Of a DNA stretch of 64,000 nucleotides, positions 6,013 through 45,365 are shown piece by piece. The number at the start of each line of letters is the position of its first letter. Within the stretch, counting starts at the first letter, position 1. Location: NCBI RefSeq assembly GCF_036507355.1, contig NZ_AP027877.1. The stretch is one strand, 5' to 3'. The notes beneath the pieces are model-generated. The model saw only the letters and a list, made by a program, of their open reading frames with translations. It made no database searches and was not told where the DNA came from. Origin of the DNA: Escherichia coli. Lineage in GTDB: Bacteria > Pseudomonadota > Gammaproteobacteria > Enterobacterales > Enterobacteriaceae. Position numbers and translations under genes: made by a program.

Positions 6013-6128
6013 GCGAGCAGCATTCCTGATTTTAAACGTGAACGCCGCTGGAAGAATTATCAGGTATAGAATGGCGTCGGGTGCTTGAGGCTGTCTGGCG
6101 TTAAGCATTCGCGAGGTTCCAGATGGAC

Positions 6129-6181
6129 AAAAGCCCCAGGCGATATTTCTATCAACCTGAGGCTCGCGTTCGAACGTAGCA
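6129..6181 (-). ncRNA. candidate Sok-like antisense RNA of the hok locus
   Basis: Minus strand: -35 TTGCCT (6216..6211), 17-bp spacer, -10 TAACAT (6193..6188), then about 55 nt ending in an 8-bp hairpin (gcctcagg/cctggggc) plus UUUU; antisense to the hok leader. Confidence 0.4.
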
Positions 6182-6219
6182 ATTCGGATGTTAGTCTCTT
6201 CTTTGCAGGGAGGCAAGAC

Positions 6220-6372
6220 ATGCTAACAAAATATGCCCTTGTGGCAATCATAGTACTGTGTTGTACAGTACTGGGATTCACGCTCATGGTAGGCGACTCG
6301 TTATGTGAGTTGAATATCAGAGAGCGTGGTATGGAGTTTAAGGCAGTTCTCGCTTACGAATCGAAGAAGTAG
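6220..6372 (+). CDS. Hok/Gef-family type I toxin (small membrane peptide)
   Basis: 50-aa product [50 protein letters not shown], closely resembling chromosomal Hok peptides (HokE-like as I recall it); SD gcagggagg upstream; leader begins with the hok-type motif ggtgcttgaggctgtctggc. Confidence 0.8.
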
Positions 6373-6746: not shown

Positions 6747-6761
6747 GGTAATGACTCCAAC

Positions 6762-7265
6762 TTATTGATAGTGTTTTATGTTCAGATAATGCCCGATGAC
6801 TTTGTCATGCAGCTCCACCGATTTTGAGAACGACAGCGACTTCCGTCCCAGCCGTGCCAGGTGCTGCCTCAGATTCAGGTTATGCCGCTCAATTCGCTGC
6901 GTATATCGCTTGCTGATTACGTGCAGCTTTCCCTTCAGGCGGGATTCATACAGCGGCCAGCCATCCGTCATCCATATCACCACGTCAAAGGGTGACAGCA
7001 GGCTCATAAGACGCCCCAGCGTCGCCATCGTGCGTTCACCGAATACGTGCGCAACAACCGTCTTCCGGAGCCTGTCATACGCGTAAAACAGCCAGCGCTG
7101 GCGCGATTTAGCCCCGACATAGCCCCACTGTTCGTCCATTTCCGCGCAGACGATGACGTCACTGCCCGGCTGTATGCGCGAGGTTACCGACTGCGGCCTG
7201 AGTTTTTTAAGTGACGTAAAATCGTGTTGAGGCCAACGCCCATAATGCGGGCTGTTGCCCGGCAT
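6762..7265 (-). CDS. insB: IS1 transposase InsB (InsAB' C-terminal part)
   Basis: 167-aa [30 protein letters not shown] ... NIKHYQ. Confidence 0.9.
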
Positions 7266-7459
7266 CCAACGCCATTCATGGCCATATCAATGATTTTCTG
7301 GTGCGTACCGGGTTGAGAAGCGGTGTAAGTGAACTGCAGTTGCCATGTTTTACGGCAGTGAGAGCAGAGATAGCGCTGATGTCCGGCGGTGCTTTTGCCG
7401 TTACGCACCACCCCGTCAGTAGCTGAACAGGAGGGACAGCTGATAGAAACAGAAGCCAC
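7184..7459 (-). CDS. insA: IS1 InsA (transposition repressor / InsAB' N-terminal part)
   Basis: 91-aa [43 protein letters not shown]. Confidence 0.9.
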
Positions 7460-7514
7460 TGGAGCACCTCAAAAACACCATCATACACTAAATCAGTAAG
7501 TTGGCAGCATCACC

Positions 7515-7523
7515 CGGGCTGGC
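7515..7523. repeat. IS1 target-site duplication, right copy (CGGGCTGGC)
   Basis: Identical to 6738..6746. Confidence 0.85.
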
Positions 7524-9451
7524 TGATTATTTTCGTCAATTAGGGATTTCTGACAAGGAACAGGCGGCTCAATTTTTCGCCTGGTTGTTGTGCTGGCACG
7601 ATATTGGAAAATTTGCCCGCTCATTTCAGCAACTTTACCTGCACCCACAACTCAAGGTTCCGGAAGGCGCAAGAAAGAATTACGAAAAGATCTCTCATTC
7701 AACGCTGGGCTACTGGTTGTGGCATCATTATTTAAGTGAATGCGAAGAATTGCTTCCTGCCTCTTCACTCTCTACTCGCAAACTTAAACGTGTAATAGCG
7801 ATGTGGATGCCCATGACTACCGGGCATCATGGTCGGCCCCCTGACCGTATTGATGAACTGGATAATTTTCTGCCTGAAGACAAAGTTGCCGCGCGAGATT
7901 TTCTCCTTGAAATCAAGGCACTGTGTCCGCTCATAGAGATTCCCACATTCTGGGATAATGACGAGGGAGTTGAACTTTTAAAACAACTTTCCTGGTATAT
8001 CTCTGCAACAGTCGTACTTGCAGACTGGACGGGTTCGTCAACGCGATTTTTTCCACGCGTCGCACACCCAATGGATATTAAAGATTACTGGCAGAAAACT
8101 TTAGTTCAGGCTCAAAACGCCTTAACCGTCTTTCCTCCAAAAGCAGAAACCGCACCTTTCACCGGAATTAATACGCTGTTTCCTTTTATTGAGCACCCGA
8201 CACCATTACAGCAAAAGGTGCTGGATCTGGATATCAGCCAGCCAGGGCCACAGTTATTTATTCTGGAAGACGTGACTGGCGCAGGTAAAACAGAAGCGGC
8301 GCTTATCCTGGCGCACAGGTTGATGGCTGCGAGGAAAGCACAGGGTTTGTTTTTTGGCCTGCCAACAATGGCAACGGCCAATGCCATGTACGATCGGCTG
8401 GTCAAAACCTGGCTTGCTTTCTATTCGCCAGAGTCCCGCCCCAGCCTGGTGCTGGCACACAGTGCCCGCACATTAATGGACCGCTTTAATGAATCACTCT
8501 GGTCCGGTGATTTAGTCGGGTCAGAAGAACCGGATGAACAAGCGTTCAGTCAAGGATGTGCAGCCTGGTTTGCCGACAGTAACAAGAAGGCTTTACTGGC
8601 TGAAATTGGCGTCGGCACGCTGGATCAGGCGATGATGGCGGTGATGCCGTTCAAACATAATAATCTGCGGCTTCTGGGGCTGAGTAACAAAATCCTGCTG
8701 GCTGATGAGATCCACGCCTGTGACGCTTACATGTCATGCATTCTTGAAGGGCTGATCGAGCGGCAGGCGCGTGGTGGAAACAGCGTCATTTTGCTTTCTG
8801 CTACGTTATCCCAACAGCAGCGCGACAAACTCGTCGCCGCCTTTGCGCGTGGCACAGAGGGCCAGCAAGAAGCTCCGTTCCTTGAAAAGGATGATTACCC
8901 CTGGCTGACGCATGTCACGAAATCCGATGTGAACTCACACCGGGTAGCGACGCGCAAAGACGTTGAGCGTAGCGTCAGCGTGGGTTGGCTTCATAGTGAA
9001 CAAGAGAGTATTGCGCGTATCGAATCGGCGGTAAGTCAGGGAAAATGCATCGCCTGGATCCGCAATTCTGTCGATGACGCTATTAAGGTTCATCGTCAGC
9101 TGCTTGCCCGCGGCGTCATTCCCGCTTCCAGCCTTTCACTCTTTCATAGCCGCTTTGCTTTTAGCGATCGCCAGCGAATCGAAACGGAAACGCTGGCACG
9201 CTTTGGTAAAAATTGTAATTTAAAAAGATCATCGCAAGTCATTGTTTGTACACAAGTAATTGAGCAAAGTGTGGATATTGACCTGGACGAAATGATCTCC
9301 GACCTTGCCCCCATTGATTTGCTGATCCAGCGAGCGGGGCGATTACAGCGACATATCCGCGATATTAATGGTCAGTTAAAGCGTGACGGAAAAGACGAGC
9401 GTTCCCCTCCTGAATTGCTGATTCTGGCCCCCGTCTGGGACGACGCTCCTG

Positions 9452-9781
9452 GTGACGAATGGTTCGGCAGTGCCATGCGTACGCGCCTTTACAGAGGCCG
9501 CGCTTAAAGTCTCACCAACCGGAAAACAAAACAGCTTTGCCAGCCGTGCCTACGCCTCCTGGGCGCTGGCGGAAAAAGGCACTGTTCAACCGCGTTCTCT
9601 GGCGGCGGCTTTCTATGAACCCATTAATGGTACCCGTCAGTTAGATGTGGCGGTGCAGCGTATTACAACGCTTCGCGAAAACATGAATACGGTCTACGAA
9701 CAGAAGACTGAATGCGCAAGTTTTGACGTGATGAACAAACAGGGAAGCATGAAGGACGTACTGGACTTTATCTGCGCGTAA
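9452..9781 (+). other. cas gene remnant: either the 3' end of a Cascade gene (likely cas7e/casC) or a frameshifted Cas3 C-terminal segment
   Basis: 109-codon ORF in the +1 frame relative to cas3, overlapping its end by 55 nt; its stop lies 10 nt before the casD-like start with an intervening SD (aagggg), an operon-internal spacing. Confidence 0.35.
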
Positions 9782-9791
9782 GGGGCGGCTT

Positions 9792-9870
9792 ATGAGCCAA
9801 TATCTGATTTTTCAGCTTCATGGGCCAATGGCATCCTGGGGCGTCGATGCCCCCGGCGAAGTGCGTCATA
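9792..9870 (+). pseudogene. casD: casD (cas5e) 5' remnant, about 25 codons, fused out of frame to cas1
   Basis: N-terminus MSQYLIFQLHGPMASWG matches the Cas5e N-terminus as I remember it from E. coli (MRSYLILRLAGPMQAWG); similarity is lost where the Cas1 frame begins. Confidence 0.6.
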
Positions 9871-10973
<1,103 letters not shown>

Positions 10974-11069
10974 GTTATGTGTTCTTTAAAAATAAGGAAA
11001 TGTTTGAATTTAGTTGGTAGATTGTTGATGTGGAATAAATTTGTTTAAAAACAGATATGTATGCTTAGT
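10974..11069 (+). promoter_or_regulatory. CRISPR leader (AT-rich)
   Basis: About 95 bp of AT-rich sequence between the cas2 stop and the first repeat. Confidence 0.7.
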
Positions 11070-11281
11070 GTGTTCCCGGCGCCAGCGGGGATAAACCGAC
11101 GAGGGGCTCGTTATTCGGGAAATTACAAAAGTGTTCCCCGCGCCAGCGGGGATAAACCGGCCCAGGGATTTGTTCAATCCAGCGTGCCGCTGTGTTCCCC
11201 GCATCAGCGGGGATAAACCGGGCGCACTGGATGCGATGATGGATATCACTTAGAATTCCCCGCCCCTGCGGTAGAACTCCC
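11070..11281 (+). CRISPR. type I-E CRISPR array: 3 spacers of 32 nt, three 29-bp repeats and a degenerate terminal repeat
   Basis: Repeats GTGTTCCCGGCGCCAGCGGGGATAAACCG (11070..11098), GTGTTCCCCGCGCCAGCGGGGATAAACCG (11131..11159), GTGTTCCCCGCATCAGCGGGGATAAACCG (11192..11220), degenerate gaattccccgcccctgcggtagaactccc (11253..11281); spacers at 11099..11130, 11160..11191, 11221..11252. Confidence 0.9.
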
Positions 11282-18665: not shown

Positions 18666-20027
<1,362 letters not shown>

Positions 20028-20166
20028 AACGTGAGGAAATACCTGGATTTTTCCTGGTTATTTTGCCGCAGGTCAGCGTATCGTGAACATCTTTTCCAGT
20101 GTTCAGTATGGTGCCCTGCACGGTAATTATGTCACTGGTTATTAACCAATTTTTCCTGGGGGATAA

Positions 20167-21306
20167 ATGAGCGCGGGAAGCCCAAAATTCACCGTTCGCC
20201 GCATTGCGGCTTTGTCACTGGTTTCGCTATGGCTGGCAGGCTGTTCTGACACTTCAAATCCACCGGCACCGGTCAGTTCCGTCAATGGCAATGCGCCTGC
20301 AAATACCAATTCTGGTATGTTGATTACGCCGCCGCCGAAAATGGGGACGACGTCTACAGCGCAGCAACCGCAAATTCAGCCGGTACAGCAGCCACAAATT
20401 CAGGCTACTCAACAACCGCAAATCCAGCCAGTGCAGCCAGTAGCTCAGCAGCCGGTACAGATGGAAAACGGACGCATCGTCTATAACCGTCAGTATGGGA
20501 ACATTCCGAAAGGCAGTTATAGCGGCAGTACATACACCGTGAAAAAAGGCGACACACTTTTCTATATCGCCTGGATTACTGGCAACGATTTCCGTGACCT
20601 TGCTCAGCGCAACAATATTCAGGCACCATACGCGCTGAACGTTGGTCAGACCTTACAGGTGGGGAATGCTTCCGGTACGCCAATCACTGGCGGAAATGCC
20701 ATTACCCAGGCCGACGCAGCAGAGCAAGGAGTTGTGATCAAGCCTGCACAAAATTCCACCGTTGCTGTTGCGTCGCAACCGACAATTACGTATTCTGAGT
20801 CTTCGGGTGAACAGAGTGCTAACAAAATGTTGCCGAACAACAAGCCAACTGCGACCACGGTCACAGCGCCTGTAACGGTACCAACAGCAAGCACAACCGA
20901 GCCGACTGTCAGCAGTACATCAACCAGTACGCCTATCTCCACCTGGCGCTGGCCGACTGAGGGCAAAGTGATCGAAACCTTTGGCGCTTCTGAGGGGGGC
21001 AACAAGGGGATTGATATCGCAGGCAGCAAAGGACAGGCAATTATCGCGACCGCAGATGGCCGCGTTGTTTATGCTGGTAACGCGCTGCGCGGCTACGGTA
21101 ATCTGATTATCATCAAACATAATGATGATTACCTGAGTGCCTACGCCCATAACGACACAATGCTGGTCCGGGAACAACAAGAAGTGAAGGCGGGGCAAAA
21201 AATAGCAACCATGGGTAGCACCGGAACCAGTTCAACACGCTTGCATTTTGAAATTCGTTACAAGGGGAAATCCGTAAACCCGCTGCGTTATTTGCCGCAG
21301 CGATAA
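20167..21306 (+). CDS. nlpD: murein hydrolase activator lipoprotein NlpD (LysM + degenerate M23 domain)
   Basis: 379-aa ORF with lipoprotein signal (LAGCSD), Q/P-rich repeats, LysM and M23-like C-terminus; the rpoS promoter is expected inside this gene. Confidence 0.93.
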
Positions 21307-21368
21307 ATCGGCGGAACCAGGCTTTTGCTTGAATGTTCCGTCAAGGGATCACGGGTAGGAGCCACCTT

Positions 21369-22361
21369 ATGAGTCAGAATACGCTGAAAGTTCATGATTT
21401 AAATGAAGATGCGGAATTTGATGAGAACGGAGTTGAGGTTTTTGACGAAAAGGCCTTAGTAGAAGAGGAACCCAGTGATAACGATTTGGCCGAAGAGGAA
21501 CTGTTATCGCAGGGAGCCACACAGCGTGTGTTGGACGCGACTCAGCTTTACCTTGGTGAGATTGGTTATTCACCACTGTTAACGGCCGAAGAAGAAGTTT
21601 ATTTTGCGCGTCGCGCACTGCGTGGAGATGTCGCCTCTCGCCGCCGGATGATCGAGAGTAACTTGCGTCTGGTGGTAAAAATTGCCCGCCGTTATGGCAA
21701 TCGTGGTCTGGCGTTGCTGGACCTTATCGAAGAGGGCAACCTGGGGCTGATCCGCGCGGTAGAGAAGTTTGACCCGGAACGTGGTTTCCGCTTCTCAACA
21801 TACGCAACCTGGTGGATTCGCCAGACGATTGAACGGGCGATTATGAACCAAACCCGTACTATTCGTTTGCCGATTCACATCGTAAAGGAGCTGAACGTTT
21901 ACCTGCGAACCGCACGTGAGTTGTCCCATAAGCTGGACCATGAACCAAGTGCGGAAGAGATCGCAGAGCAACTGGATAAGCCAGTTGATGACGTCAGCCG
22001 TATGCTTCGTCTTAACGAGCGCATTACCTCGGTAGACACCCCGCTGGGTGGTGATTCCGAAAAAGCGTTGCTGGACATCCTGGCCGATGAAAAAGAGAAC
22101 GGTCCGGAAGATACCACGCAAGATGACGATATGAAGCAGAGCATCGTCAAATGGCTGTTCGAGCTGAACGCCAAACAGCGTGAAGTACTGGCACGTCGAT
22201 TCGGTTTGCTGGGGTACGAAGCGGCAACACTGGAAGATGTAGGTCGTGAAATTGGCCTCACCCGTGAACGTGTTCGCCAGATTCAGGTTGAAGGCCTGCG
22301 CCGTTTGCGCGAAATCCTGCAAACGCAGGGGCTGAATATCGAAGCGCTGTTCCGCGAATAA
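21369..22361 (+). CDS. rpoS: RNA polymerase sigma factor RpoS (sigma-38)
   Basis: ORF 21333..22361; start at internal [17 protein letters not shown] (330 aa); intact, no premature stop; residue 33 is Glu. Confidence 0.95.
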
Positions 22362-22377
22362 GTAAGCATCTGTCAGA

Positions 22378-22414
22378 AAGGCCAGTCTCAAGCGAGGCTG
22401 GCCTTTTTCTTTTG
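22378..22414 (+). terminator. rho-independent terminator of rpoS
   Basis: Hairpin ggccagtctcaagcgaggctggcc followed by tttttctttt. Confidence 0.8.
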
Positions 22415-22480
22415 TTTGGGAAGCTTGTGTTTTTGTCGCCTGGATAAGACACGTCAGCGTCCTACCCGGCAATTTGCATC

Positions 22481-22888
22481 CTATGTGTTCATCATCTTGC
22501 GCACCAGCTGCACAAACAGCTCCTGCTCTTCTGCACTCAAACGCCCCAAAAATTCCTCATCCACGCTGTCACCAATCGGTATCGCCGCAGCAAGTATCTT
22601 TTCTCCTTCGGCAGTCAGCCAGACAAAGCGACGCCGCTTGTCAGCGGCATCATGTTCACGTCTGACTAAGCCACGATTCTCCATTCTTGCCAACATTTCT
22701 GCCAACGTTGCTTTGGTGCTGACTGCTGCTTCTATCAGTGCCACCTGTTCGATACCAGGCTTATCAGCAATGGCGCGCATCACCGCATACTGTGGTTTGG
22801 TCAGGTCAGGTAACTCGTGCTGCCAGCGAGCCGTGTGCTGCTGAAAAAGCTGTCGTAACTGATGGAACGCTTTATTTCGTAACGCCAT
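22481..22888 (-). CDS. hosA: MarR/SlyA-family transcriptional regulator (HosA-like)
   Basis: 135-aa ORF with winged-helix region; divergent from the adjacent decarboxylase genes. Confidence 0.75.
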   Translation of the reverse strand: MALRNKAFHQLRQLFQQHTARWQHELPDLTKPQYAVMRAIADKPGIEQVALIEAAVSTKATLAEMLARMENRGLVRREHDAADKRRRFVWLTAEGEKILAAAIPIGDSVDEEFLGRLSAEEQELFVQLVRKMMNT

Positions 22889-23034
22889 GTAAACTCCGGG
22901 CTAATTCTCTGTCGCTATCATAGCGGTTTTTTAGTGACGAAGAAGATGTTGTTACTTTTCAATCCTTGCCGCTGTGGAAATGAAGGAGTATGTTAATAAT
23001 AACGTTCGTATACGAACAATTAAGAGAATAAGCA

Positions 23035-23628
23035 ATGAAACTGATCGTCGGGATGACAGGGGCTACCGGTGCGCCTCTTGGTGTGGCATTACTGCAAGCG
23101 CTGCGGGAGATGCCGAATGTCGAGACTCATCTGGTGATGTCGAAGTGGGCGAAAACCACCATTGAACTGGAAACGCCTTACAGCGCCCGCGATGTTGCTG
23201 CCCTCGCTGACTTCAGCCATAACCCGGCGGATCAGGCGGCGACCATCTCCTCAGGTTCCTTTCGTACCGACGGCATGATCGTTATTCCGTGCAGTATGAA
23301 AACGCTCGCCGGTATCCGCGCTGGTTACGCCGATGGCCTGGTAGGGCGCGCGGCGGACGTCGTGCTCAAAGAAGGCCGCAAACTGGTGCTGGTGCCGCGT
23401 GAAATGCCGCTTAGCACCATCCATCTCGAAAATATGCTCGCACTTTCACGCATGGGCGTGGCGATGGTGCCGCCGATGCCTGCCTTTTATAACCATCCCG
23501 AAACGGTAGATGACATTGTCCACCATGTAGTAGCCCGCGTGCTGGATCAATTTGGCCTCGAACATCCCCACGCCAGGCGCTGGCAAGGATTGCCGCAGGC
23601 CCGGAATTTTTCTCAGGAGAATGAATAA
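23035..23628 (+). CDS. ecdB: UbiX/Pad1-family flavin prenyltransferase (decarboxylase accessory subunit B)
   Basis: 197-aa ORF MKLIVGMTGATGAPLGVALLQALREMPNVETHLVMSKWA, typical UbiX N-terminus. Confidence 0.8.
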   Translation: MKLIVGMTGATGAPLGVALLQALREMPNVETHLVMSKWAKTTIELETPYSARDVAALADFSHNPADQAATISSGSFRTDGMIVIPCSMKTLAGIRAGYADGLVGRAADVVLKEGRKLVLVPREMPLSTIHLENMLALSRMGVAMVPPMPAFYNHPETVDDIVHHVVARVLDQFGLEHPHARRWQGLPQARNFSQENE

Positions 23629-25055
23629 TGGCATTTGATGATTTACGCAGCTTTTTACAGGCGCTTGATGACCACGGCCAGTTACTGAAAATCAGCGAAG
23701 AGGTGAACGCGGAACCGGATCTGGCAGCAGCAGCTAACGCCACCGGGCGTATCGGTGACGGCGCGCCCGCGCTGTGGTTTGATAATATTCGCGGCTTTAC
23801 CGATGCCCGCGTGGCAATGAACACCATCGGTTCCTGGCAGAACCACGCGATTTCCCTCGGCCTGTCGCCAAACACCCCGGTCAAAAAGCAGATTGATGAG
23901 TTTATCCGCCGCTGGGATAACTTCCCGATTGCCCCGGAGCGCCGCGCCAATCCAGCCTGGGCGCAGAACACCGTCGATGGCGACGAGATCAACCTGTTCG
24001 ATATCCTGCCGCTGTTTCGTTTAAACGATGGCGATGGCGGTTTCTATCTCGACAAAGCGTGCGTGGTTTCCCGCGATCCGCTCGACCCGGATAACTTCGG
24101 CAAGCAGAACGTCGGCATCTACCGCATGGAAGTGAAGGGCAAGCGTAAGCTCGGCCTGCAACCGGTGCCGATGCACGATATCGCCCTGCATCTGCATAAA
24201 GCGGAAGAGCGCGGTGAAGATCTGCCGATTGCGATCACGCTCGGTAACGATCCGATCATCACGCTGATGGGGGCCACGCCGCTGAAATACGAACAGTCTG
24301 AGTATGAAATGGCAGGTGCGCTGCGTGAAAGCCCGTACCCGATCGCCACCGCCCCGCTGACCGGTTTTGATGTGCCGTGGGGTTCAGAAGTGATCCTCGA
24401 AGGGGTCATCGAAAGCCGTAAACGCGAAATCGAAGGGCCGTTCGGTGAGTTTACCGGACACTACTCCGGCGGGCGTAACATGACCGTGGTGCGCATCGAT
24501 AAAGTCTCTTACCGCACCAGGCCGATTTTCGAATCGCTGTACCTCGGCATGCCGTGGACCGAAATCGACTACCTGATGGGGCCAGCCACCTGTGTGCCGC
24601 TGTATCAGCAACTTAAAGCCGAGTTCCCGGAAGTACAGGCGGTGAACGCCATGTACAACCACGGCCTGCTGGCGATTATCTCCACCAAAAAACGCTACGG
24701 CGGCTTTGCCCGCGCGGTGGGCCTGCGTGCGATGACCACGCCGCACGGTCTGGGCTACGTAAAGATGGTGATTATGGTCGATGAAGACGTTGACCCGTTC
24801 AACCTGCCGCAGGTGATGTGGGCGCTCTCCTCGAAAGTAAATCCGGCAGGGGATTTGGTGCAGTTGCCGAATATGTCCGTGCTGGAACTCGACCCTGGCT
24901 CAAGCCCGGCGGGGATCACCGACAAGCTGATTATCGACGCCACCACGCCTGTCGCCCCGGACAACCGTGGTCACTACAGCCAGCCGGTGGTGGATTTGCC
25001 GGAAACCAAAGCCTGGGCTGAAAAACTGACCGCTATGCTGGCCGCACGTAAATAA
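23628..25055 (+). CDS. ecdC: UbiD-family non-oxidative aromatic acid decarboxylase (subunit C)
   Basis: 475-aa ORF overlapping ecdB stop; UbiD-like N-terminus MAFDDLRSFLQALDDHGQLLKISEEV. Confidence 0.8.
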   Translation: MAFDDLRSFLQALDDHGQLLKISEEVNAEPDLAAAANATGRIGDGAPALWFDNIRGFTDARVAMNTIGSWQNHAISLGLSPNTPVKKQIDEFIRRWDNFPIAPERRANPAWAQNTVDGDEINLFDILPLFRLNDGDGGFYLDKACVVSRDPLDPDNFGKQNVGIYRMEVKGKRKLGLQPVPMHDIALHLHKAEERGEDLPIAITLGNDPIITLMGATPLKYEQSEYEMAGALRESPYPIATAPLTGFDVPWGSEVILEGVIESRKREIEGPFGEFTGHYSGGRNMTVVRIDKVSYRTRPIFESLYLGMPWTEIDYLMGPATCVPLYQQLKAEFPEVQAVNAMYNHGLLAIISTKKRYGGFARAVGLRAMTTPHGLGYVKMVIMVDEDVDPFNLPQVMWALSSKVNPAGDLVQLPNMSVLELDPGSSPAGITDKLIIDATTPVAPDNRGHYSQPVVDLPETKAWAEKLTAMLAARK

Positions 25056-25065
25056 GGAGAACAAG

Positions 25066-25302
25066 ATGATTTGTCCACGTTGTGCCGATGAACAGATTGA
25101 AGTGATGGCGAAATCGCCGGTGAAAGATGTCTGGACGGTATATCAGTGCCAGCATTGCCTTTATACCTGGCGCGATACCGAACCGCTACGTCGCATCAGC
25201 CGCGAACATTATCCCGAAGCGTTCCGCATGACGCAGAAAGATATTGATGACGCGCCAATGGTGCCGAGCATTCCGCCGCTGCTGGCGGCAGATAAGCGCT
25301 AA
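25066..25302 (+). CDS. ecdD: small decarboxylase subunit D (zinc-ribbon-like, CxxC ... CxxC)
   Basis: 78-aa ORF MICPRCADEQIEVMAKSPVKDVWTVYQCQHCLYTWRD. Confidence 0.7.
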   Translation: MICPRCADEQIEVMAKSPVKDVWTVYQCQHCLYTWRDTEPLRRISREHYPEAFRMTQKDIDDAPMVPSIPPLLAADKR

Positions 25303-25303
25303 T

Positions 25304-25338
25304 AAAAAGTGCCGGGTAGTGGCTTTGCTTTACCCGGC
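25304..25338. terminator. bidirectional terminator between ecdD and pphB
   Basis: Hairpin gccgggta ... tacccggc with a T-run on the plus side and an A-run on the other. Confidence 0.6.
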
Positions 25339-25342
25339 CTCA

Positions 25343-25999
25343 TTACTTTATTTTATAAAATGACAGCCGCCCGCTTTTCGGCGATCCGGTATCAATATAA
25401 ATCTGGTTAGCGAACGTCTGAATGTTATCAAGCATCATATGTCCAAATATAAAATAATCAGCGCCGTTTATTTGTTGTAACTCGCCATTAAGAGATTTCT
25501 GCACACGATCAACAGGCCAAAGTAATTCGCTCTCCGCTATTTGTTTGCCAAAGAGATATTCATTGCCCGGATAATCCGCATGTGCGATGACATATTTTAT
25601 AATGTCGTTGGTAATTTCAATAATATGTGGAAGTTGATGAAATTTCAGCAATAGACCTATAGCTTCTTTTTGTTCCATATCATTTAACTCAAAGAACCAG
25701 TCACCACCGCTGGCAAGCCACATATTGCCATCGCCGGTCGCGAACGCATCCAGCGCCATTGCTTCGTGGTTGCCTTTAACGGAGATAAACCAGGGCTGGT
25801 TTAGCAGGCGCAGGACGTCAAGACTCTCCGGCCCACGATCAATATTATCGCCGACAGAAATAAGTAAGTCGGTTTCGGGGAAAAAAGAGAGTTGATGTAA
25901 GCGGGATTGTAATAACTGATATTCACCATGAATATCACCAACGACCCATATATGGCGATAGTGATGGGCATTGATTTTTTGATAGCGTGTAGATGGCAT
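25343..25999 (-). CDS. pphB: serine/threonine protein phosphatase 2
   Basis: 218-aa ORF with metallophosphatase motifs GDIHGE and GDNIDRG. Confidence 0.9.
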   Translation of the reverse strand: MPSTRYQKINAHHYRHIWVVGDIHGEYQLLQSRLHQLSFFPETDLLISVGDNIDRGPESLDVLRLLNQPWFISVKGNHEAMALDAFATGDGNMWLASGGDWFFELNDMEQKEAIGLLLKFHQLPHIIEITNDIIKYVIAHADYPGNEYLFGKQIAESELLWPVDRVQKSLNGELQQINGADYFIFGHMMLDNIQTFANQIYIDTGSPKSGRLSFYKIK

Positions 26000-26104
26000 G
26001 GTTTTACCCTGTAAAATAAGCTTTCCTATTATACAGGGTATTTTTATTTGATTCGTCAGCTGTAGATAATATTCCCGATAGTATTTTTCTACCGGGAATT
26101 ATAA

Positions 26105-28666
26105 TTACACCAGACTCTTCAAGCGATAAATCCACTCCAGCGCCTGACGCGGGGTGAGTGAATCCGGATCGAGGTTTTCCAGTGCCTCGACCGCAGGCGA
26201 GGTTTCTTCTGGCACTGACAGCAAAGACATTTGCGTACCATCCACTTGCGTAGCGGCGGCGTTCGGCGAAATGCTTTCCAGCTCACGCAGTTTTTGCCGT
26301 GCGCGCTTAATAACCTCTTTTGGCACGCCGGCCAGAGCTGCAACCGCCAGGCCGTAGCTTTTGCTCGCCGCGCCATCCTGCACGCTATGCATAAAGGCAA
26401 TGGTGTCGCCGTGCTCCAGTGCATCGAGATGCACGTTGGCGACGCCTTCCATTTTCTCCGGTAACTGGGTCAGCTCGAAATAGTGGGTAGCAAACAGCGT
26501 CAATGCCTTAATCTTATTCGCCAGATTTTCCGCGCACGCCCATGCCAGTGACAGACCATCGTAAGTGGACGTTCCACGCCCGATCTCATCCATTAACACC
26601 AGACTGTATTCGGTGGCGTTATGTAAAATATTGGCGGTTTCAGTCATCTCCACCATAAAGGTTGAGCGCCCGGAAGCCAGGTCATCTGCCGCGCCTACGC
26701 GGGTAAAGATGCGATCGATAGGTCCAATCTCGACTTTTTGTGCCGGTACATAGCTGCCGATGTAGGCCATCAGCGCAATCAGTGCGGTCTGGCGCATATA
26801 GGTACTTTTACCGCCCATGTTCGGGCCGGTAATAATCAACATCCGGCGCTGCGGTGACAGATTCAGCGGGTTGGCGATAAATGGCTCGTTCAGCACCTGT
26901 TCAACCACCGGATGGCGGCCTTCGGTAATGCGAATGCCCGGTTTATCAATAAAGGTCGGGCAGGTGTAGTTCAGGGTATAGGCCCGTTCCGCCAGGTTCA
27001 CCAGCACGTCGAGTTCCGCCAGCGCGCTCGCGCTCTGTTGCAACGCTTCCAGATGCGGCAACAGCAGGTCGAACAGCTCTTCATAAAGCTGTTTTTCCAG
27101 AGCCAGTGCTTTGCCTTTTGAAGTGAGGACTTTATCTTCGTACTCTTTTAGCTCTGGAATGATGTAGCGCTCGGCGTTTTTCAGCGTCTGGCGACGCATA
27201 TAGTTGATAGGTGCCAGATGGCTTTGCCCACGGCTGATTTGAATGTAGTAGCCGTGCACCGCATTAAAGCCAACTTTTAGCGTGTCCAGGCCGGTACGTT
27301 CACGCTCGCGGACTTCCAGACGCTCCAGATAATCGGTCGCGCCGTCAGCCAGCGCGCGCCACTCATCCAGCTCTTCGTTATAGCCCGATGCGATAACACC
27401 ACCGTCGCGTACCAGCACCGGCGGTGTGTCGATGATTGCTCGCTCCAGCAGATCGCGCAGCTCGGCAAACTCGCCCATCTTCTCACGCAGCGCCTGTACC
27501 GGTGCACTATCGACAGTTTCTAACTGCGCACGCAGCTCCGGCAGTTGCTGGAAAGCGTGGCGCATACGGGCCAGATCGCGTGGGCGAGCGGTACGCAACG
27601 CCAGACGCGCCAGAATACGTTCCAGGTCGCCGACCTGACGCAGTACCGGCTGTAGCTCGGCGGTGAAATCCTGCAATGCGCCAATAGTTTGCTGGCGCTC
27701 AAGCAACACGCGGGTATCGCGCACTGGCATATGCAGCCAGCGTTTCAGCATACGGCTGCCCATCGGCGTGACGGTGCAGTCGAGCACAGAAGCCAGCGTA
27801 TTTTCCGCACCACCCGCCAGGTTCTGGGTGATTTCCAGATTACGACGCGTCGCGGCATCCATAATGATGCTGTCCTGCTCACGTTCCATGGTGATGGAAC
27901 GAATATGCGGCAGAGTCGTACGTTGGGTATCTTTCGCATACTGCAACAGACAACCGGCAGCACAAAGTCCGCGCGGCGCGTTCTCGACGCCAAAACCGAC
28001 CAGATCGCGAGTGCCAAATTGCAGATTCAACTGCTGGCGCGCGGTGTCGATTTCAAACTCCCACAGCGGGCGACGGCGCAGGCCGCGACGGCCTTCAATT
28101 AACGACATTTCAGCAAAATCTTCTGCATACAGCAATTCCGCAGGATTAGTGCGTTGCAGTTCTGCCGCCATCGTTTCCCGGTCAGCCGGTTCGCTCAGGC
28201 GAAAACGCCCGGAGCTGATATCCAGCGTCGCGTAGCCGAAACCTTTGCTGTCCTGCCAGATAGCCGCCAGCAGGTTGTCCTGACGCTCCTGCAACAGGGC
28301 TTCATCGCTGATGGTGCCTGGCGTAACGATACGCACAACTTTGCGCTCAACCGGACCTTTGCTGGTCGCCGGATCGCCAATTTGTTCGCAGATGGCAACG
28401 GACTCGCCCTGATTCACCAGTTTGGCGAGGTAGTTTTCCACCGCATGGTAGGGAATCCCCGCCATCGGGATCGGCTCTCCCGCCGAAGCACCGCGTTTGG
28501 TCAGTGAAATATCCAGCAGTTGCGACGCGCGTTTTGCGTCGTCATAAAACAGTTCATAAAAATCACCCATCCGGTAAAACAGCAGGATCTCGGGATGCTG
28601 GGCTTTCAGCTTGAGATACTGCTGCATCATGGGCGTATGGGCGTCGAAATTTTCTATTGCACTCAT
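26105..28666 (-). CDS. mutS: DNA mismatch repair protein MutS
   Basis: 853-aa [43 protein letters not shown] with Walker [10 protein letters not shown]. Confidence 0.97.
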
Positions 28667-28912
28667 GGGGTTATGTCCGGTTCCCTGATATTAAATGGGG
28701 TGTGATGGTTTTTATTTTCGTTGTAATCACATAAGGCGCACATGATACCGGAGTTAATCATTTCAGGGGAAGAAGCGAACGGCGAGTTCTTGATGCTGGT
28801 TCCGGGAAAGATGCTGTTTTGCAGCTTTTGCGTGATGCTTATGAAGCAAGTACGCAAAATTGCGTCGGTTGAATAAACCTCCTCCTTCAGAGCCATAGTC
28901 CCCTTTCAAATT

Positions 28913-28935
28913 AAGTTGTAGTATAAATACACCTT
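28913..28935 (+). promoter_or_regulatory. candidate NsrR operator in the ygbA promoter
   Basis: AAGTTGTAGTATAAATACACCTT resembles the NsrR inverted-repeat consensus; about 20 bp upstream of ygbA. Confidence 0.45.
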
Positions 28936-28952
28936 AAGAGTATGGAGGCAGC

Positions 28953-29297
28953 ATGTCCGGCAAGCGTATCTCTCGTGAAAAACTGACGATTAAAAAAATG
29001 ATCGATCTTTATCAAGCGAAATGCCCGCAGGCGTCAGCGGAGCCGGAGCATTACGAGGCGTTGTTTGTTTACGCGCAAAAGCGGCTGGATAAATGTGTGT
29101 TCGGCGAAGAGAAGCCAGCCTGTAAGCAGTGTCCGGTGCACTGTTACCAGCCTGCAAAGCGTGAGGAGATGAAACAGATTATGCGTTGGGCCGGGCCGAG
29201 AATGCTGTGGCGTCATCCGATCTTAACCGTGCGTCATCTCATCGATGACAAGCGTCCGGTGCCAGAGTTGCCAGAAAAATATCGTCCAAAGAAATAA
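28953..29297 (+). CDS. ygbA: cysteine-rich small protein YgbA
   Basis: 114-aa ORF with CxxC pairs; between mutS and fhlA. Confidence 0.8.
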   Translation: MSGKRISREKLTIKKMIDLYQAKCPQASAEPEHYEALFVYAQKRLDKCVFGEEKPACKQCPVHCYQPAKREEMKQIMRWAGPRMLWRHPILTVRHLIDDKRPVPELPEKYRPKK

Positions 29298-29335
29298 ATC
29301 TGCCGGAGAGCCATACTCTCCGGCAAATAAGGCGC

Positions 29336-29764
29336 TTACGTTTTGGTAGCAATCAGGATTGCTGATGCTTTGATCAACGCAATAACGCGTGAGCCAGTGG
29401 TAAGTTTCATTTCATCCTGACTTTCATTTGTTACCACTGCCACAATTTCAAAACCCGCATCCGTTTTGATATGGACAGTGGCGTTCACTGCGCCTTCGGT
29501 GATTGTCGACACGCTGCCAGCAAACTGGTTGCGAGCAGAGAATTTCAGTCCACAGTCTTCCGTGGCCAGCGTTACCCACGGGGCTTTAATCAGGGCAATC
29601 GCTTCTTTCCCTTTTGCCAGCCCCAGAGCCTGTTGGCTGCTGTGTGTAACAATCGCCACCAGTTTTGCACCACCTGCCAGCGTCAGTTCTACTTCGTCAT
29701 TCACCGCGCCCATTGCTACTGCGCTAACTGTTCCGGTTAATTGATTTCTTGCTGAAACTGCCAT
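29336..29764 (-). CDS. molybdate/tungstate-binding protein with tandem TOBE (Mop) domains
   Basis: ORF 29336..29803; start at internal MAVSARNQLTGTV preceded by an AGGAGG SD; two repeats of about 70 aa, each with SARNQ ... G-V ... V-hydrophobic-K pattern. Confidence 0.7.
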   Translation of the reverse strand: MAVSARNQLTGTVSAVAMGAVNDEVELTLAGGAKLVAIVTHSSQQALGLAKGKEAIALIKAPWVTLATEDCGLKFSARNQFAGSVSTITEGAVNATVHIKTDAGFEIVAVVTNESQDEMKLTTGSRVIALIKASAILIATKT

Positions 29765-29808
29765 ACTGCCTCCTTTCATTGAATGTTGATCGAGTATAAC
29801 CACATCTG

Positions 29809-31887
29809 TTAAATCAATGCCGATTTATCAATTCCCAGTCGCTTCATCCGTGACAGCAGGGTCGTGCGTTTCAGCCCCAGACGTTGCGCAGCGCCTTTAG
29901 GCCCGGCAACCACGCCGTTAGTTTCTTTCAGCACGCGAACAATCAACTGATATTCATCTTCGCCCTCCTGAGCGACAACCGTTGCGGCAGGCGGCGTTTC
30001 AGGCTCCGGTAAAGCAATATCTGGCAATGACAGCTGCAGCACGTTGCCGCGTGTTAGCAATACCGCGCGCTCAATGACGTTTTCCAGTTCGCGTACGTTA
30101 CCCGGCCACTCCATATTGCTCAAGGTGCGCAACGTCTCGGCAGGAATGCTGTCGATATTGCGCCCCAGACGACGGGCAATTTTGAAGGTAAAGGCTTTCG
30201 CCAGCAGCGGAATATCTTCCGGACGCTCGCGTAGTGGCGGAAGGTGAATCGGGAATACGTTCAGGCGGTAATAGAGATCGCTACGGAACTCACGGTCGGC
30301 GACCATTTTTTTCAGATCGCGGTTAGTCGCGGCGATTAGACGCACGTCCGTCTGAATGATTTTGTTGCTGCCGAGGCGTTCAAACTCCTGTTCCTGCAAT
30401 ACACGCAGCAACTTCGGCTGTAACTCCAGTGGCATATCGCCCACTTCGTCGAGGAACAGGGAGCTTTTATCCGCCAGTTCAAAACGACCGATACGCTGGG
30501 CGCTGGCACCGGTAAAAGCCCCACGCTCATGACCAAACAGATCGCTCTCCAGCAATCCGGCAGGCATCGCCGCGCAGTTCATTTTGACCATGCGGCGATT
30601 ATTACGCCCACTGAGATTATGGATAGCACGGGCAATCAGCTCTTTACCCGTGCCAGTTTCACCGAGGATCAGCACGGTACTGTCACTTTGCGCCACCATT
30701 TCAACTTGTTTAAGCACGCTGTACATGGCTTCGCTGCGGCCAATAATCTCGCCAAATTCACTATCAACATTGTTGAGCTGCTCGGTCAGGGCGAGGTTTT
30801 CATCAACCAGCCGTTCTTTCAGACGATGGATTTCCTGATAGGCGAGGGCGTTATCGACAGCGATTGCCACACGTTCGGCAATCTGGCGCAGTAAATTCAG
30901 ATTGGTAGTGGTAAACACTTTCTCTTCACATTGCGCCAGTTTCAGCACGCCCAGCATGGTGTCGCCAGACATCAGCGGTAACAGGCACAAGGTTTGAATC
31001 TGGTTGCCCCAGGTGTCGAACAACATGCGTTCATAGGGGGCTAAATCATCCCGCTCGTGGAGATTAATCAGCAGCATCTCTTTACTTTTGAACACGCGTT
31101 CGGTGAGGGTTCCGGCTTCATCGACTTCGCTCTGTTCGTGGGCGGGATGCTGTTTATCAAGATAGTGAGTGGAGTAGATGTTGAGTTTGTTTTTACGGTG
31201 GCTGCGTAAGACGATACTGATATCGTCAATATCGAAATAGTAATGGATTTCTTTGGCGACTTCGCTGACCAGTTCGTCCATATCCAGGCGGGAAAGCACC
31301 GCGTTGGTGATGGCGACCAGGATGCGGAAGTTATCGCGTTCCCGGCATAACAACTCATAGTCGACATTGTTAACGACGCGACTCTGGATTTGTTCGGTGA
31401 CGACAGAAACGATCTGCGTAAATGTTTGCAGACGATTGAACTCTTTTTCGCTCCAGGGGCGATCGTCATAACGAATAAATTCACAGCCACCAAAAATATG
31501 CCCTTCCGCCGCCAGTGGCATCAGGCAATAGTGAGCAAATTTTGGGTATAGCCCACCTGCGGCCAGCTGCGGCCAGGTTTCACAAAATTCTTCGTAACTG
31601 CAATGCAGCGTATCAGGGCGCGACAAAATGCTGCGTACCGGACCGTGTGCCAGAACAGTTTCGTCTTCATATTTAATGGGGGTGTCTTTTTCACGCGATG
31701 CGTAATAAGACGCACGTTGAGTCTGCGCTTGCCACAACACAATAGCCGCGTTGTCGGCGAGCGCAGAACGCTTTACCAGTTGCGAAAGAGCCTCACACAG
31801 CGAGGCCAGATCGGGCTGCTGCAATAGTGTCCGAGTGATGTCGAACAACCCTTGCTGTCCGAGATCACTCATCGGTGTATATGACAT
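29809..31887 (-). CDS. fhlA: formate hydrogenlyase transcriptional activator (sigma-54 dependent)
   Basis: ORF 29809..31923; start at internal MSYTPMSDLGQQGLFDITR (692 aa); AAA+ motifs GETGTGKE and GAFTGA; C-terminal HTH. Confidence 0.95.
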   Translation of the reverse strand: MSYTPMSDLGQQGLFDITRTLLQQPDLASLCEALSQLVKRSALADNAAIVLWQAQTQRASYYASREKDTPIKYEDETVLAHGPVRSILSRPDTLHCSYEEFCETWPQLAAGGLYPKFAHYCLMPLAAEGHIFGGCEFIRYDDRPWSEKEFNRLQTFTQIVSVVTEQIQSRVVNNVDYELLCRERDNFRILVAITNAVLSRLDMDELVSEVAKEIHYYFDIDDISIVLRSHRKNKLNIYSTHYLDKQHPAHEQSEVDEAGTLTERVFKSKEMLLINLHERDDLAPYERMLFDTWGNQIQTLCLLPLMSGDTMLGVLKLAQCEEKVFTTTNLNLLRQIAERVAIAVDNALAYQEIHRLKERLVDENLALTEQLNNVDSEFGEIIGRSEAMYSVLKQVEMVAQSDSTVLILGETGTGKELIARAIHNLSGRNNRRMVKMNCAAMPAGLLESDLFGHERGAFTGASAQRIGRFELADKSSLFLDEVGDMPLELQPKLLRVLQEQEFERLGSNKIIQTDVRLIAATNRDLKKMVADREFRSDLYYRLNVFPIHLPPLRERPEDIPLLAKAFTFKIARRLGRNIDSIPAETLRTLSNMEWPGNVRELENVIERAVLLTRGNVLQLSLPDIALPEPETPPAATVVAQEGEDEYQLIVRVLKETNGVVAGPKGAAQRLGLKRTTLLSRMKRLGIDKSALI

Positions 31888-43652: not shown

Positions 43653-43676
43653 TTCTTCATCAGGGAATTCAGGGAA

Positions 43677-44450
43677 TTGAACATCAGAACAGGGATGTGC
43701 GCTTTTTTATTGAGCTTAGTGCAGTCTGCACAGGCCACCAGCTTTACCGAATATCTGCCAATGAGTGGCAGCGAATATGCGCAAAAGCGGGCGCTGAAAC
43801 CTCTCCTGACCATGCCTTATTATACCGAGCAAACTTGGCATTTTAGAAAAATCGGCGTTGCTGGCGTGACGCTTGAGAAGATGCCAAATGAAGAGGATTA
43901 CTGGCAATTAACCGCTAAAGACCGCGCGGGTAAATCCTGGACGGTGCCAGTGGGGTTGCTGGCAAATATGGCGGGCAAAGGGCAGCTCTATCGCGCCGAT
44001 CTGGATCGTAACGGCATTCAGGATCTGGTTATCTGGTTGCCAAGTGCCGGTAATGGTCTGGCGCCCTATGCACATTTAATCCTCATGACGTTCACGCACG
44101 AAGGCCGTCCCTGTGTCTTTGAACCCTGGGGATTCTACACTGCAAGCAAAACTGGCGTAGATGATTTGCTGGATTTACAAGGCAATGGTCACACGCAATT
44201 GCTGGATATGCAGTTTAATTCTGGTTACTGGATAACCAGTCTGTATCAGGTAAAAGACGCCAAATGGCAGCGTGTTCACGGCTGGTTTGGCAAGTTAAGC
44301 TATCCCGCGCTCACGCGTTTTACTTATACCCCCAACCGTAAACTCGTCCTCAAACCCATCGCCGGGCGCGACACACAAACGGAAGATCTGTCGCTGACGC
44401 AGCGTTGCTTGATAAAGGGGGATATGCTTGATGGGGTGAATCAGAACTGA
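43677..44450 (+). CDS. secreted protein of unknown function with two FG-GAP-like D-x-D-x-N-G-x-x-D loops
   Basis: 257-aa ORF starting 24 nt after the hycI stop; N-terminal signal peptide (CAFLLSLVQSAQA|TS); motifs ADLDRNGIQDLVIW and DLLDLQGNGHTQLLD. Confidence 0.6.
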   Translation: MNIRTGMCAFLLSLVQSAQATSFTEYLPMSGSEYAQKRALKPLLTMPYYTEQTWHFRKIGVAGVTLEKMPNEEDYWQLTAKDRAGKSWTVPVGLLANMAGKGQLYRADLDRNGIQDLVIWLPSAGNGLAPYAHLILMTFTHEGRPCVFEPWGFYTASKTGVDDLLDLQGNGHTQLLDMQFNSGYWITSLYQVKDAKWQRVHGWFGKLSYPALTRFTYTPNRKLVLKPIAGRDTQTEDLSLTQRCLIKGDMLDGVNQN

Positions 44451-44611
44451 CTTTTTGCAGAGTGGTTATGAGGATTTTGGGGGTAATTATATCACGCGCA
44501 AGTGTTTACATATTGTGAACTTGGATTTGATGAGCTATAGTTTCCGAACACATGAGGATAGAACTCGCAGATGTGGCTGTTTACTTACTATAAGGAAGTT
44601 AAAACTTAAAA

Positions 44612-45339: not shown

Positions 45340-45365
45340 TTTTGACTGATGCCAAACTCCAGATT

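Follow-up and report, generated by a model that had tools for sequence, protein, structure and literature searches.

Decarboxylases that act non-oxidatively and reversibly on hydroxyarylic acids are known from Firmicutes and from enterobacteria. In Sedimentibacter hydroxybenzoicus VdcCD (ShdCD; PDB 7AE4) and Bacillus subtilis BsdBCD, a UbiD-type C subunit carrying the ERE motif is paired with a Cys4 zinc-ribbon D subunit, and the substrates are 4-hydroxybenzoate (4-HBA) and vanillate. Klebsiella pneumoniae KpdBCD and the enzyme from Enterobacter cloacae P240 that decarboxylates 4-hydroxybenzoate, both encoded in B-C-D operons, belong to the same family and are active on 4-HBA. UbiX and UbiD of ubiquinone biosynthesis have the same protein folds and the same prFMN cofactor chemistry, but the substrate in that pathway is prenylated.

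In Escherichia coli O157:H7 the mutS–rpoS region contains what has been called a "2.9-kb insert" (PMC4209514, citing LeClerc 1999). For the O157:H7 enzyme, EcdCD, Table 2 of PMC6644310 (citing Lupa 2005) ranks 4-hydroxybenzoate as the best substrate and shows that vanillate is accepted too. The regulator HosA from strain UMN026 leaves its DNA when 4-HBA is added (Kd 4.7 µM; PMC6261655), and repression of the decarboxylase operon by HosA and its induction by 4-HBA are attributed to Roy and Ranjan 2016 in bioRxiv 10.1101/2024.04.24.590444.

We describe the corresponding locus of another E. coli strain, and put at about 0.93 the probability that its hosA and vdcBCD genes constitute a HosA-regulated module for non-oxidative, reversible decarboxylation of hydroxyarylic acids, located in an O157:H7-type 2.9-kb variant of the mutS–rpoS region. 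The module is real, intact, and ordinary; its biology is already established, both in published work and in the routine annotation of RefSeq.

Organization of the rpoS–pphB interval

The window, by which we mean the whole 64,000-nucleotide stretch of DNA that was analysed (NCBI RefSeq assembly GCF_036507355.1, contig NZ_AP027877.1), contains four open reading frames between rpoS and pphB, one on the minus strand and three on the plus strand, transcribed divergently (Table 1). Their coordinates are exactly those given in a first-pass annotation of the sequence. The product of rpoS reaches 605 bits with the NCBIfam RpoS equivalog model (cut-off 394) and is identical at 330 of 330 residues in three other E. 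coli strains. No RNA genes were found in or beside the interval with Rfam and ARAGORN. The G+C content is 57–58% in vdcB and vdcC, 52% in rpoS and hosA, and 42% in pphB, which shows the region to be a compositional mosaic. Elsewhere in the window, the cas operon carries an IS1 insertion and internal deletions.

Table 1. Features between rpoS and mutS, in window coordinates (a dot marks features listed with no strand)
Feature	Position	Strand	Description
rpoS	21369..22361	+	330 aa, Glu at codon 33; left conserved flank
rpoS intrinsic terminator	22375..22408	+	terminator-like hairpin; left junction of the variable segment
REP-like palindromic hairpin	22436..22472	-	predicted in the minus-strand fold; shortly after the hosA stop codon
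hosA	22481..22888	-	135 aa; MarR-family repressor; 4-hydroxybenzoate-responsive, as judged from published near-identical proteins
second conserved palindrome CGCTATCATAGCG	22913..22925	.	hosA–vdcB intergenic region
putative sigma-70 promoter of vdcBCD	22966..22994	+	TTGCCG, 17 nt, TATGTT; located by eye
HosA operator, perfect 14-bp palindrome GTTCGTATACGAAC	23004..23017	.	direct pattern search
vdcB (ecdB, kpdB, 'pad1')	23035..23628	+	197 aa; UbiX-type flavin prenyltransferase making prFMN
vdcC (ecdC, kpdC, 'yclC')	23628..25055	+	475 aa; UbiD-family catalytic subunit
vdcD (ecdD, kpdD)	25066..25302	+	78 aa; zinc-ribbon activator subunit
hairpin between convergent vdcD and pphB	25311..25338	.	fold energy -18 to -20 kcal/mol, either strand
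pphB	25343..25999	-	NCBIfam PRK09968, 464 bits; right junction
mutS	26105..28666	-	ORF call and RefSeq annotation of colinear genomes; right conserved flank

Comparison with K-12 defines the limits of the variable segment. Alignment and direct comparison of the junction sequences show that K-12 homology stops at 22407 and starts again at 25344. In a BLAST comparison of the window with the K-12 pphB–rpoS stretch, the matches were confined to the flanks (18920–22407 and 25344–29326), with none inside 22408–25343. The K-12 counterpart of this 2,936-bp segment is 6,097 bp long and, as seen in MG1655, carries ygbI–ygbN between pphB and rpoS, as the first-pass annotation had stated; the identity to the K-12 ygb genes that it had named as refuting evidence is absent. 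Because a segment of 2,936 bp replaces 6,097 bp of K-12, we equate 22408–25343 with the 2.9-kb insert of O157:H7. The locus had been regarded as one form of a known polymorphic region and as a sign of non-K-12 origin. Both views are upheld: the module is missing from K-12, and comparison with described variants identifies the arrangement as the O157:H7 type.

The O157:H7 segment ('slyA'/hosA, pad1/ecdB, yclC/ecdC, ecdD) matches the window in gene content, order, and orientation. It is colinear and has the same junctions: on the left the rpoS terminator, on the right pphB, which the segment abuts directly. The four proteins are 96–99.5% identical and the operator is unchanged; at the DNA level identity is ~97%, leaving a few amino-acid differences. 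The window also has a gene for a TOBE-domain protein between ygbA and fhlA, which O157:H7 lacks.

The EPEC E2348/69-type arrangement ('pattern IV', hosA-kpdBCD plus ygbN–ygbI; PMC4209514) has the same module, also adjoining rpoS. There the ygbN terminator and the complete ygb cluster come after the module, whereas in the window a private hairpin and then pphB come after vdcD. A simple deletion of ygbN–ygbI from the module-plus-ygb arrangement was considered as the origin of the window arrangement and rejected: vdcD is followed by 38 bp, with a hairpin among them, that resemble neither the terminator of ygbN nor the ygbI–pphB spacer. In RefSeq annotation the same four genes occur in ~44% of complete E. 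coli genomes (2,379 of 5,426), and the vdcD–pphB junction is found in 805 of the 5,426 (~15%).

HosA and its operator

The MarR-type regulator recognized in the first-pass annotation is supported by the Pfam MarR model (E = 6e-12; 45.7 bits, cut-off 24.6), and its gene is indeed divergent from the plus-strand cluster. The link to SlyA, a historical name of the gene, does not hold at the level of orthology, with the SlyA equivalog model NF002926 giving 30.2 bits against a cut-off of 120. The protein is identical at 133 of 135 residues to PDB 8AGA ('Transcriptional regulator HosA') and at 134 of 135 to the O157:H7 orthologue. By sequence the regulator is HosA, a member of the same family as SlyA but separate from it. 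The hairpin that follows hosA presumably resembles the E. coli REP consensus.

A single copy of the operator palindrome, GTTCGTATACGAAC, was found by pattern search in the whole window; it precedes the vdcB start codon by 17 nt and follows the putative -10 element by 10 nt. It is identical to the published HosA binding-site oligonucleotides (supplementary table S1, PMC6261655) and is kept in two further strains besides O157:H7. All that the inverted-repeat tool gave was an 11-nt palindrome, offset to 22996–23011, that overlaps the first 8 bp of the operator; it was the pattern search that gave the full 14-bp site. The second intergenic palindrome, CGCTATCATAGCG, does not vary among the four E. 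coli loci compared. The promoter drawn by eye upstream of vdcB agrees with the consensus at 8 of 12 positions, and a consensus scan of the hosA–vdcB intergenic region with a threshold of 9/12 found no site; the assignment of 22966–22994 as the vdcBCD promoter is putative.

A HosA dimer, as in the MarR family, would bind the palindrome at 23004–23017 and block transcription of vdcBCD; this site is present here and agrees with the published sequence. The operator would lie just downstream of the likely transcription start, a position that we infer. Binding of 4-hydroxybenzoate to HosA would then release it from the DNA, as published for near-identical proteins.

The decarboxylase genes

The three co-oriented, adjacent genes encode the UbiX-like, UbiD-like, and zinc-ribbon proteins proposed in the first-pass annotation as a reversible, non-oxidative hydroxyarylic acid decarboxylase set, and all three scores exceed the NCBIfam cut-offs: 312 bits for VdcB (cut-off 290), 785 bits for VdcC (E = 1e-236; cut-off 650), and 121 bits for VdcD (cut-off 30). 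VdcB is identical at 196 of 197 residues to PDB 1SBZ, the solved "Pad1" of O157:H7. VdcC aligns over residues 3–471 with chain A of PDB 7AE4 (E = 1e-159), and VdcD matches chain a, ShdD (E = 3e-11).

The residues expected of an active enzyme are in place. VdcC has the ERE motif, formed by Arg166 (GIYR, 163–166) and by Glu269 and Glu274 (EGPFGE, 269–274), and Glu274 aligns with the catalytic Glu278 of ShVdcC (PMC8379154). VdcD has two CXXC knuckles, Cys3/Cys6 and Cys28/Cys31, numbered exactly as the zinc ligands of ShVdcD. The C-terminal tail of the D subunit diverges from those of the Sedimentibacter and Bacillus proteins, and these Firmicutes homologues lack both a HosA regulator and the mutS–rpoS context.

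The proposal that all three genes are translationally coupled stands for the first pair: vdcB and vdcC overlap by one base (TAATG, 23626–23630), with CAGGAG 8 nt upstream. It is weaker for the second, since vdcC and vdcD are 10 nt apart; here AAGGAG (25054–25059) overlaps the last two bases of the vdcC stop codon. The folded hairpin at 25311–25338 is probably a bidirectional terminator common to vdcD and pphB. It belongs only to the arrangement with vdcD directly abutting pphB: neither K-12 nor a strain carrying the module together with the ygb genes has it.

VdcC differs from three E. coli orthologues at Glu222 and Asn344 (Asp and Thr, respectively, in all three) and at Ser80 (Pro in two of the three), and VdcD has a few private substitutions. 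ShVdcC has Thr at the position matching Asn344. Comparison gave no support for a location of Asn344 within a universally conserved UbiD motif: in the loop around this residue the sequence of E. coli UbiD cannot be aligned.

Substrate and direction of the reaction

By family function and by the near-identity to 1SBZ, VdcB would prenylate reduced FMN to give the prFMN cofactor. VdcC loaded with prFMN would reversibly decarboxylate 4-hydroxybenzoate to phenol and CO2 through Glu269, Arg166, and Glu274, and would convert vanillate to guaiacol less efficiently. Both activities are taken by analogy from the published O157:H7 enzyme, which is 99% identical. VdcD, a zinc-ribbon allosteric activator needed for activity (PMC8379154), may bind VdcC and keep the catalytic loops in place, as published for the Sedimentibacter and Bacillus homologues; the zinc-binding cysteines are conserved here. 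Activity in aerobic E. coli cells is uncertain, since homologues of VdcCD are sensitive to oxygen and difficult to obtain in the cofactor-bound form (PMC8379154). Substrate and regulation are nevertheless less open than the first-pass annotation had claimed: in published work 4-hydroxybenzoate is both HosA's effector and the substrate that the O157:H7 enzyme, which also accepts vanillate, uses best. In the cell the module probably serves to remove or detoxify phenolic acids, yielding phenol, the physiological direction and the benefit to the cell being those that we infer.

The family reaction is reversible in vitro (PMC5779730; table of PMC6644310), and the enzyme might therefore serve in vivo mainly as a phenol carboxylase, fixing CO2 onto phenol in the anaerobic gut. 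This is very unlikely. It is the acid, 4-HBA, and not phenol that induces the operon; intestinal bacteria with these genes have been scored as phenol producers from 4-hydroxybenzoate (PMC6424909); and the carboxylation has been called technically feasible but inefficient (PMC5779730).

Still less probable is a preference for some other phenolic acid, such as protocatechuate (AroY-like) or gallate (LpdC-like). Substrate ranges in the family do overlap, with Klebsiella KpdBCD taking several hydroxybenzoates (PMC6644310), and the window-specific substitutions in VdcC could be read in the same sense. AroY structures are, however, much weaker matches (5O3M, 1e-27; 5NY5, 1e-25) than the 4-HBA/vanillate decarboxylase ShVdcC (1e-159), the 99%-identical O157:H7 enzyme prefers 4-HBA (PMC6644310), and the cognate repressor responds to 4-HBA.

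The decay of the cas operon and the few private substitutions in VdcC and VdcD might suggest a non-functional remnant in this strain, but each of the four reading frames is full length and aligns with its family model from end to end, and the catalytic and zinc-binding residues, ribosome-binding sites, operator, and terminator are all intact, so that a remnant is an even poorer explanation. Least credible of all is that the UbiX-like and UbiD-like genes are spare ubiquinone-pathway copies acting on 3-octaprenyl-4-hydroxybenzoate: the protein families are the same, with matches to E. coli UbiD (2IDB, 5M1C; E = 1e-47) and to UbiX structures (~1e-36), but the UbiD equivalog model PRK10922 (NF008175) gives only 174 bits against a cut-off of 788 where the VdcC cut-off is exceeded, the window enzyme would act on a free phenolic acid with the help of a D subunit that UbiD does not use, HosA senses free 4-HBA in published work, and the module is wholly absent from K-12.

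Implications

The main value of the HosA-regulated decarboxylase module is as a lineage marker, identifying a non-K-12 E. coli with an O157:H7-type rpoS–pphB junction. By analogy with the published proteins, the strain would sense 4-hydroxybenzoate and decarboxylate 4-hydroxybenzoate and vanillate to phenols, functions of relevance to phenolic-acid tolerance, gut phenol production, and biocatalysis.

A broader proposal is that carriage of the module acts at strain level as a determinant of how E. coli produces phenol in the gut, and is predictable from the mutS–rpoS haplotype, with HosA linking the signal to other traits such as motility. We regard this as speculative and rather doubtful. The genes and their enzymology are known, and only the ecological or host consequence would be new. 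If the proposal is true, carriers would take 4-hydroxybenzoate that stems from diet, parabens, or tyrosine and make phenol from it, and phenol is the precursor of phenyl sulfate, a uraemic toxin.

An alternative gene set between rpoS and mutS

The interval between rpoS and pphB–mutS is occupied by hosA, which encodes a MarR-family regulator, and by the divergent vdcBCD genes for the B, C, and D subunits of a decarboxylase; truD, surE/umpG, pcm, nlpD, and rpoS lie upstream. The six-frame ORF list returns all four genes, complete, at exactly the positions proposed in the first-pass annotation. The translational coupling also proposed there is literal for vdcB and vdcC, because these overlap within TAATG (ribosome-binding site CAGGAG, 8 nt upstream). 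It is no more than plausible for vdcC and vdcD, where 10 nt separate the two genes and AAGGAG takes in the final two bases of the vdcC stop codon. The G+C content is mosaic: 57–58% in vdcB and vdcC, 52% in rpoS and hosA, and 42% in pphB.

Features of the window, in order of position
Feature	Position	Strand	Remarks
sok antitoxin RNA	6079-6235	+	full-length Rfam match
Insert of 768 bp	6747-7514		between hok/sok locus and cas3
IS1 transposase ORF	6762-7265	−	within the 768-bp insert
Type I-E cas operon	7501-11219		apparently decayed
nlpD tandem repeat	20365-20429		24-bp unit, 2.7 copies
rpoS	21369-22361		upstream flank
Variable segment	22408-25343		2,936 bp
hosA	22481-22888	−	135 aa, complete
Second palindrome	22913-22925		13 bp
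Putative vdcBCD promoter	22966-22994		TTGCCG-17 nt-TATGTT
HosA operator	23004-23017		14 bp
vdcB	23035-23628	+	197 aa, complete
vdcC	23628-25055	+	475 aa, complete
vdcD	25066-25302	+	78 aa, complete
Strong hairpin	25311-25338		between convergent vdcD and pphB
pphB	25343-25999	−	downstream flank
mutS	26105-28666	−	downstream flank
TOBE-domain gene	29336-29803	−	between ygbA and fhlA
Segment of ~1.67 kb	43674-45345		between hycI and ascB
Gene for 257-aa protein	43677-44450		no Pfam match
HigB-like toxin and HTH antitoxin	44612-44923 and 44920-45339

K-12 (MG1655) has ygbI, ygbJ, ygbK, ygbL, ygbM, and ygbN between pphB and rpoS. When the window was compared with this K-12 stretch by BLAST, the flanks aligned (18920-22407 at 99.4%, 25344-29326 at 96.3%) and nothing aligned between 22407 and 25344, so that no identity to the ygb genes was found. 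The variable segment is therefore the one listed in the table, in place of 6,097 bp of K-12. It starts directly past the rpoS terminator and ends at the final base of the pphB stop codon. It matches the "2.9-kb insertion" whose initial discovery PMC4209514 places in O157:H7 and Shigella dysenteriae, and also the mosaic "patterns" of the o454–nlpD region reviewed there, where the genes are called kpdB, kpdC, kpdD, and slyA/kpdR.

The flanks differ in their identity to K-12, 96.3% on the pphB–mutS–ygbA side (25343-29326) versus 99.4% on the rpoS side. Compared with three other E. coli strains, PphB has 9–11 differences in 218 residues; RpoS, with Glu at codon 33, is identical in all. Such divergence fits reports that mutS alleles are exchanged horizontally. 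The nlpD repeat encodes a Pro/Gln-rich linker.

Distribution among E. coli genomes

Among 5,426 complete RefSeq E. coli genomes, 2,379 carry the module at a coverage of at least 80%, always on the chromosome. The direct vdcD–pphB junction of the window recurs in 805, and the whole 10-kb neighbourhood is colinear in 809. In a strain that has both module and ygb genes, the ygbN terminator comes after vdcD, whereas the 38 bp that follow vdcD in the window are different; derivation of the window by clean deletion of the ygb genes from such an arrangement was therefore rejected. The best identity to any of the genomes is ~98.7%, both across 20000-30000 and across the module (22362-25342), and the source lineage is thus not closely represented in this set.

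The TOBE-domain gene (molybdate-binding type), the counterpart of "c3292" of CFT073, is present in 1,889 of the 5,426 genomes; K-12 has no match across 29327-29807, and the gene is also absent from O157:H7. The window therefore joins an O157-type rpoS–pphB junction with a CFT073/E2348-type fhlA–ygbA junction.

Two further segments, the 768-bp insert and the ~1.67-kb segment, are missing from the closest complete genome. The insert encodes an IS1 transposase (Pfam DDE_Tnp_IS1, E = 2e-78), the ~1.67-kb segment the 257-aa protein and the HigB-like toxin with its HTH antitoxin. Relative to E. coli Res13-Sevr-PER07-33, the cas operon has two internal deletions, of ~3.5 kb and ~1.4 kb, that take out casA, casB, and cas6e, the greater part of cas7e and of cas5e, the cas3 3′ end, and the beginning of cas1e; fragments of cas3 and cas1 remain, together with cas2. 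The sok RNA (105 bits; gathering score 59), the sole Rfam match in the window, adjoins a chromosomal hok/gef family gene.

Identity of the encoded proteins

The reading of the cluster as a MarR-type regulator with a UbiX/UbiD/small-subunit decarboxylase is borne out by Pfam domains (MarR; Flavoprotein, with the UbiX fold; three UbiD domains) and by NCBIfam, in which the B, C, and D subunits of the non-oxidative hydroxyarylic acid decarboxylase all exceed their curated cut-offs (312/290, 785/650, and 121/30). The regulator clearly fails the SlyA equivalog (30 versus 120) and is identical at 133 of 135 residues to PDB 8AGA, "Transcriptional regulator HosA." VdcB shares 196 of 197 residues with PDB 1SBZ, the O157:H7 "Pad1" structure. 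VdcC matches chain A of PDB 7AE4, the Sedimentibacter hydroxybenzoicus vanillate/4-hydroxybenzoate decarboxylase VdcCD, over residues 3–471 (E = 1e-159), and VdcD matches its partner chain, ShdD. The catalytic Glu-Arg-Glu residues of VdcC are kept (E269, R166, E274), E274 aligning with catalytic E278 of ShVdcC, as are four zinc-binding cysteines of VdcD (C3, C6, C28, and C31, numbered as in ShVdcD). All four proteins are 96–99.5% identical to their O157:H7 orthologues.

Some substitutions are particular to the window. E222 and N344 of VdcC occur in none of three E. coli orthologues compared, the Sedimentibacter enzyme too having Thr at the latter position; at S80, two of the three have Pro. 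I44, A75, and D76 of VdcD are private among the strains compared. The Glu-Arg-Glu motif and the zinc-binding cysteines are untouched.

Regulation and proposed function

The 146-bp region between hosA and vdcB contains a perfect 14-bp palindrome, GTTCGTATACGAAC, which occurs once in the 64-kb window in a pattern search allowing two mismatches. With its flanks it is the same sequence as in the HosA binding-site oligonucleotides of the PMC6261655 supplement; that study describes a 14-bp palindromic site from which 4-hydroxybenzoate (Kd = 4.7 uM) releases HosA. A putative sigma-70-like promoter for vdcBCD (8/12 consensus match) precedes it, a site for which the consensus promoter scan made no call. 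If this promoter is used, the operator would fall at about +3 to +16, in agreement with bioRxiv 10.1101/2024.04.24.590444, which places the HosA site downstream of the transcription start, with roadblock action. The hosA start codon is preceded, at a distance of 25 nt, by a second palindrome, CGCTATCATAGCG, with a T-run after it. Four E. coli loci share this palindrome unchanged, and it does not resemble the HosA operator. It may act as an additional site of regulation or, with TATGAT on its minus strand, belong to the hosA promoter.

The sequence itself establishes the genes and their intactness, the catalytic and metal-binding residues, the operator, and the junctions; the ligand response, substrates, and subunit roles are taken from work on near-identical proteins. 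HosA on its operator would repress vdcBCD and 4-hydroxybenzoate would release it, as reported for the operon (the same bioRxiv paper; PMC6261655 for release). VdcB would supply prenylated FMN, with which VdcC would decarboxylate 4-hydroxybenzoate in a reversible reaction that yields phenol, and would turn vanillate into guaiacol; PMC6644310 ranks these substrates first and second for the O157:H7 enzyme. VdcD would be an obligatory zinc-ribbon activator that steadies the loops bearing the catalytic triad, by analogy with the D subunit that is required for activity and stabilises these loops (PMC8379154). Gut bacteria bearing these genes have been scored as phenol producers from 4-hydroxybenzoate (PMC6424909). 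We infer which way the reaction runs under physiological conditions and how the cell benefits from it.

A net carboxylation of phenol could in principle take place in vivo, but since it is the acid that induces the operon, this reading is not preferred. An AroY-like or gallate specificity is unlikely: AroY structures give far weaker matches (1e-25 to 1e-27 versus 1e-159), and the regulator responds to 4-hydroxybenzoate. Decay of the module is not supported, since every element is intact. A spare ubiquinone-pathway UbiX/UbiD pair is excluded by the clear failure of VdcC at the NCBIfam UbiD equivalog (174 versus a cut-off of 788), by the accompanying D subunit, and by the fact that K-12 lacks the module. 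The gene arrangement is confirmed, and its interpretation as a MarR-type regulator with a hydroxyarylic acid decarboxylase cluster is supported.

The module is already known: for E. coli, the regulator and subunit B have crystal structures, homologous C and D subunits have been solved, the HosA operator is mapped, and RefSeq assigns the product names routinely. Its use here is confined to that of a lineage marker and to correct functional annotation.
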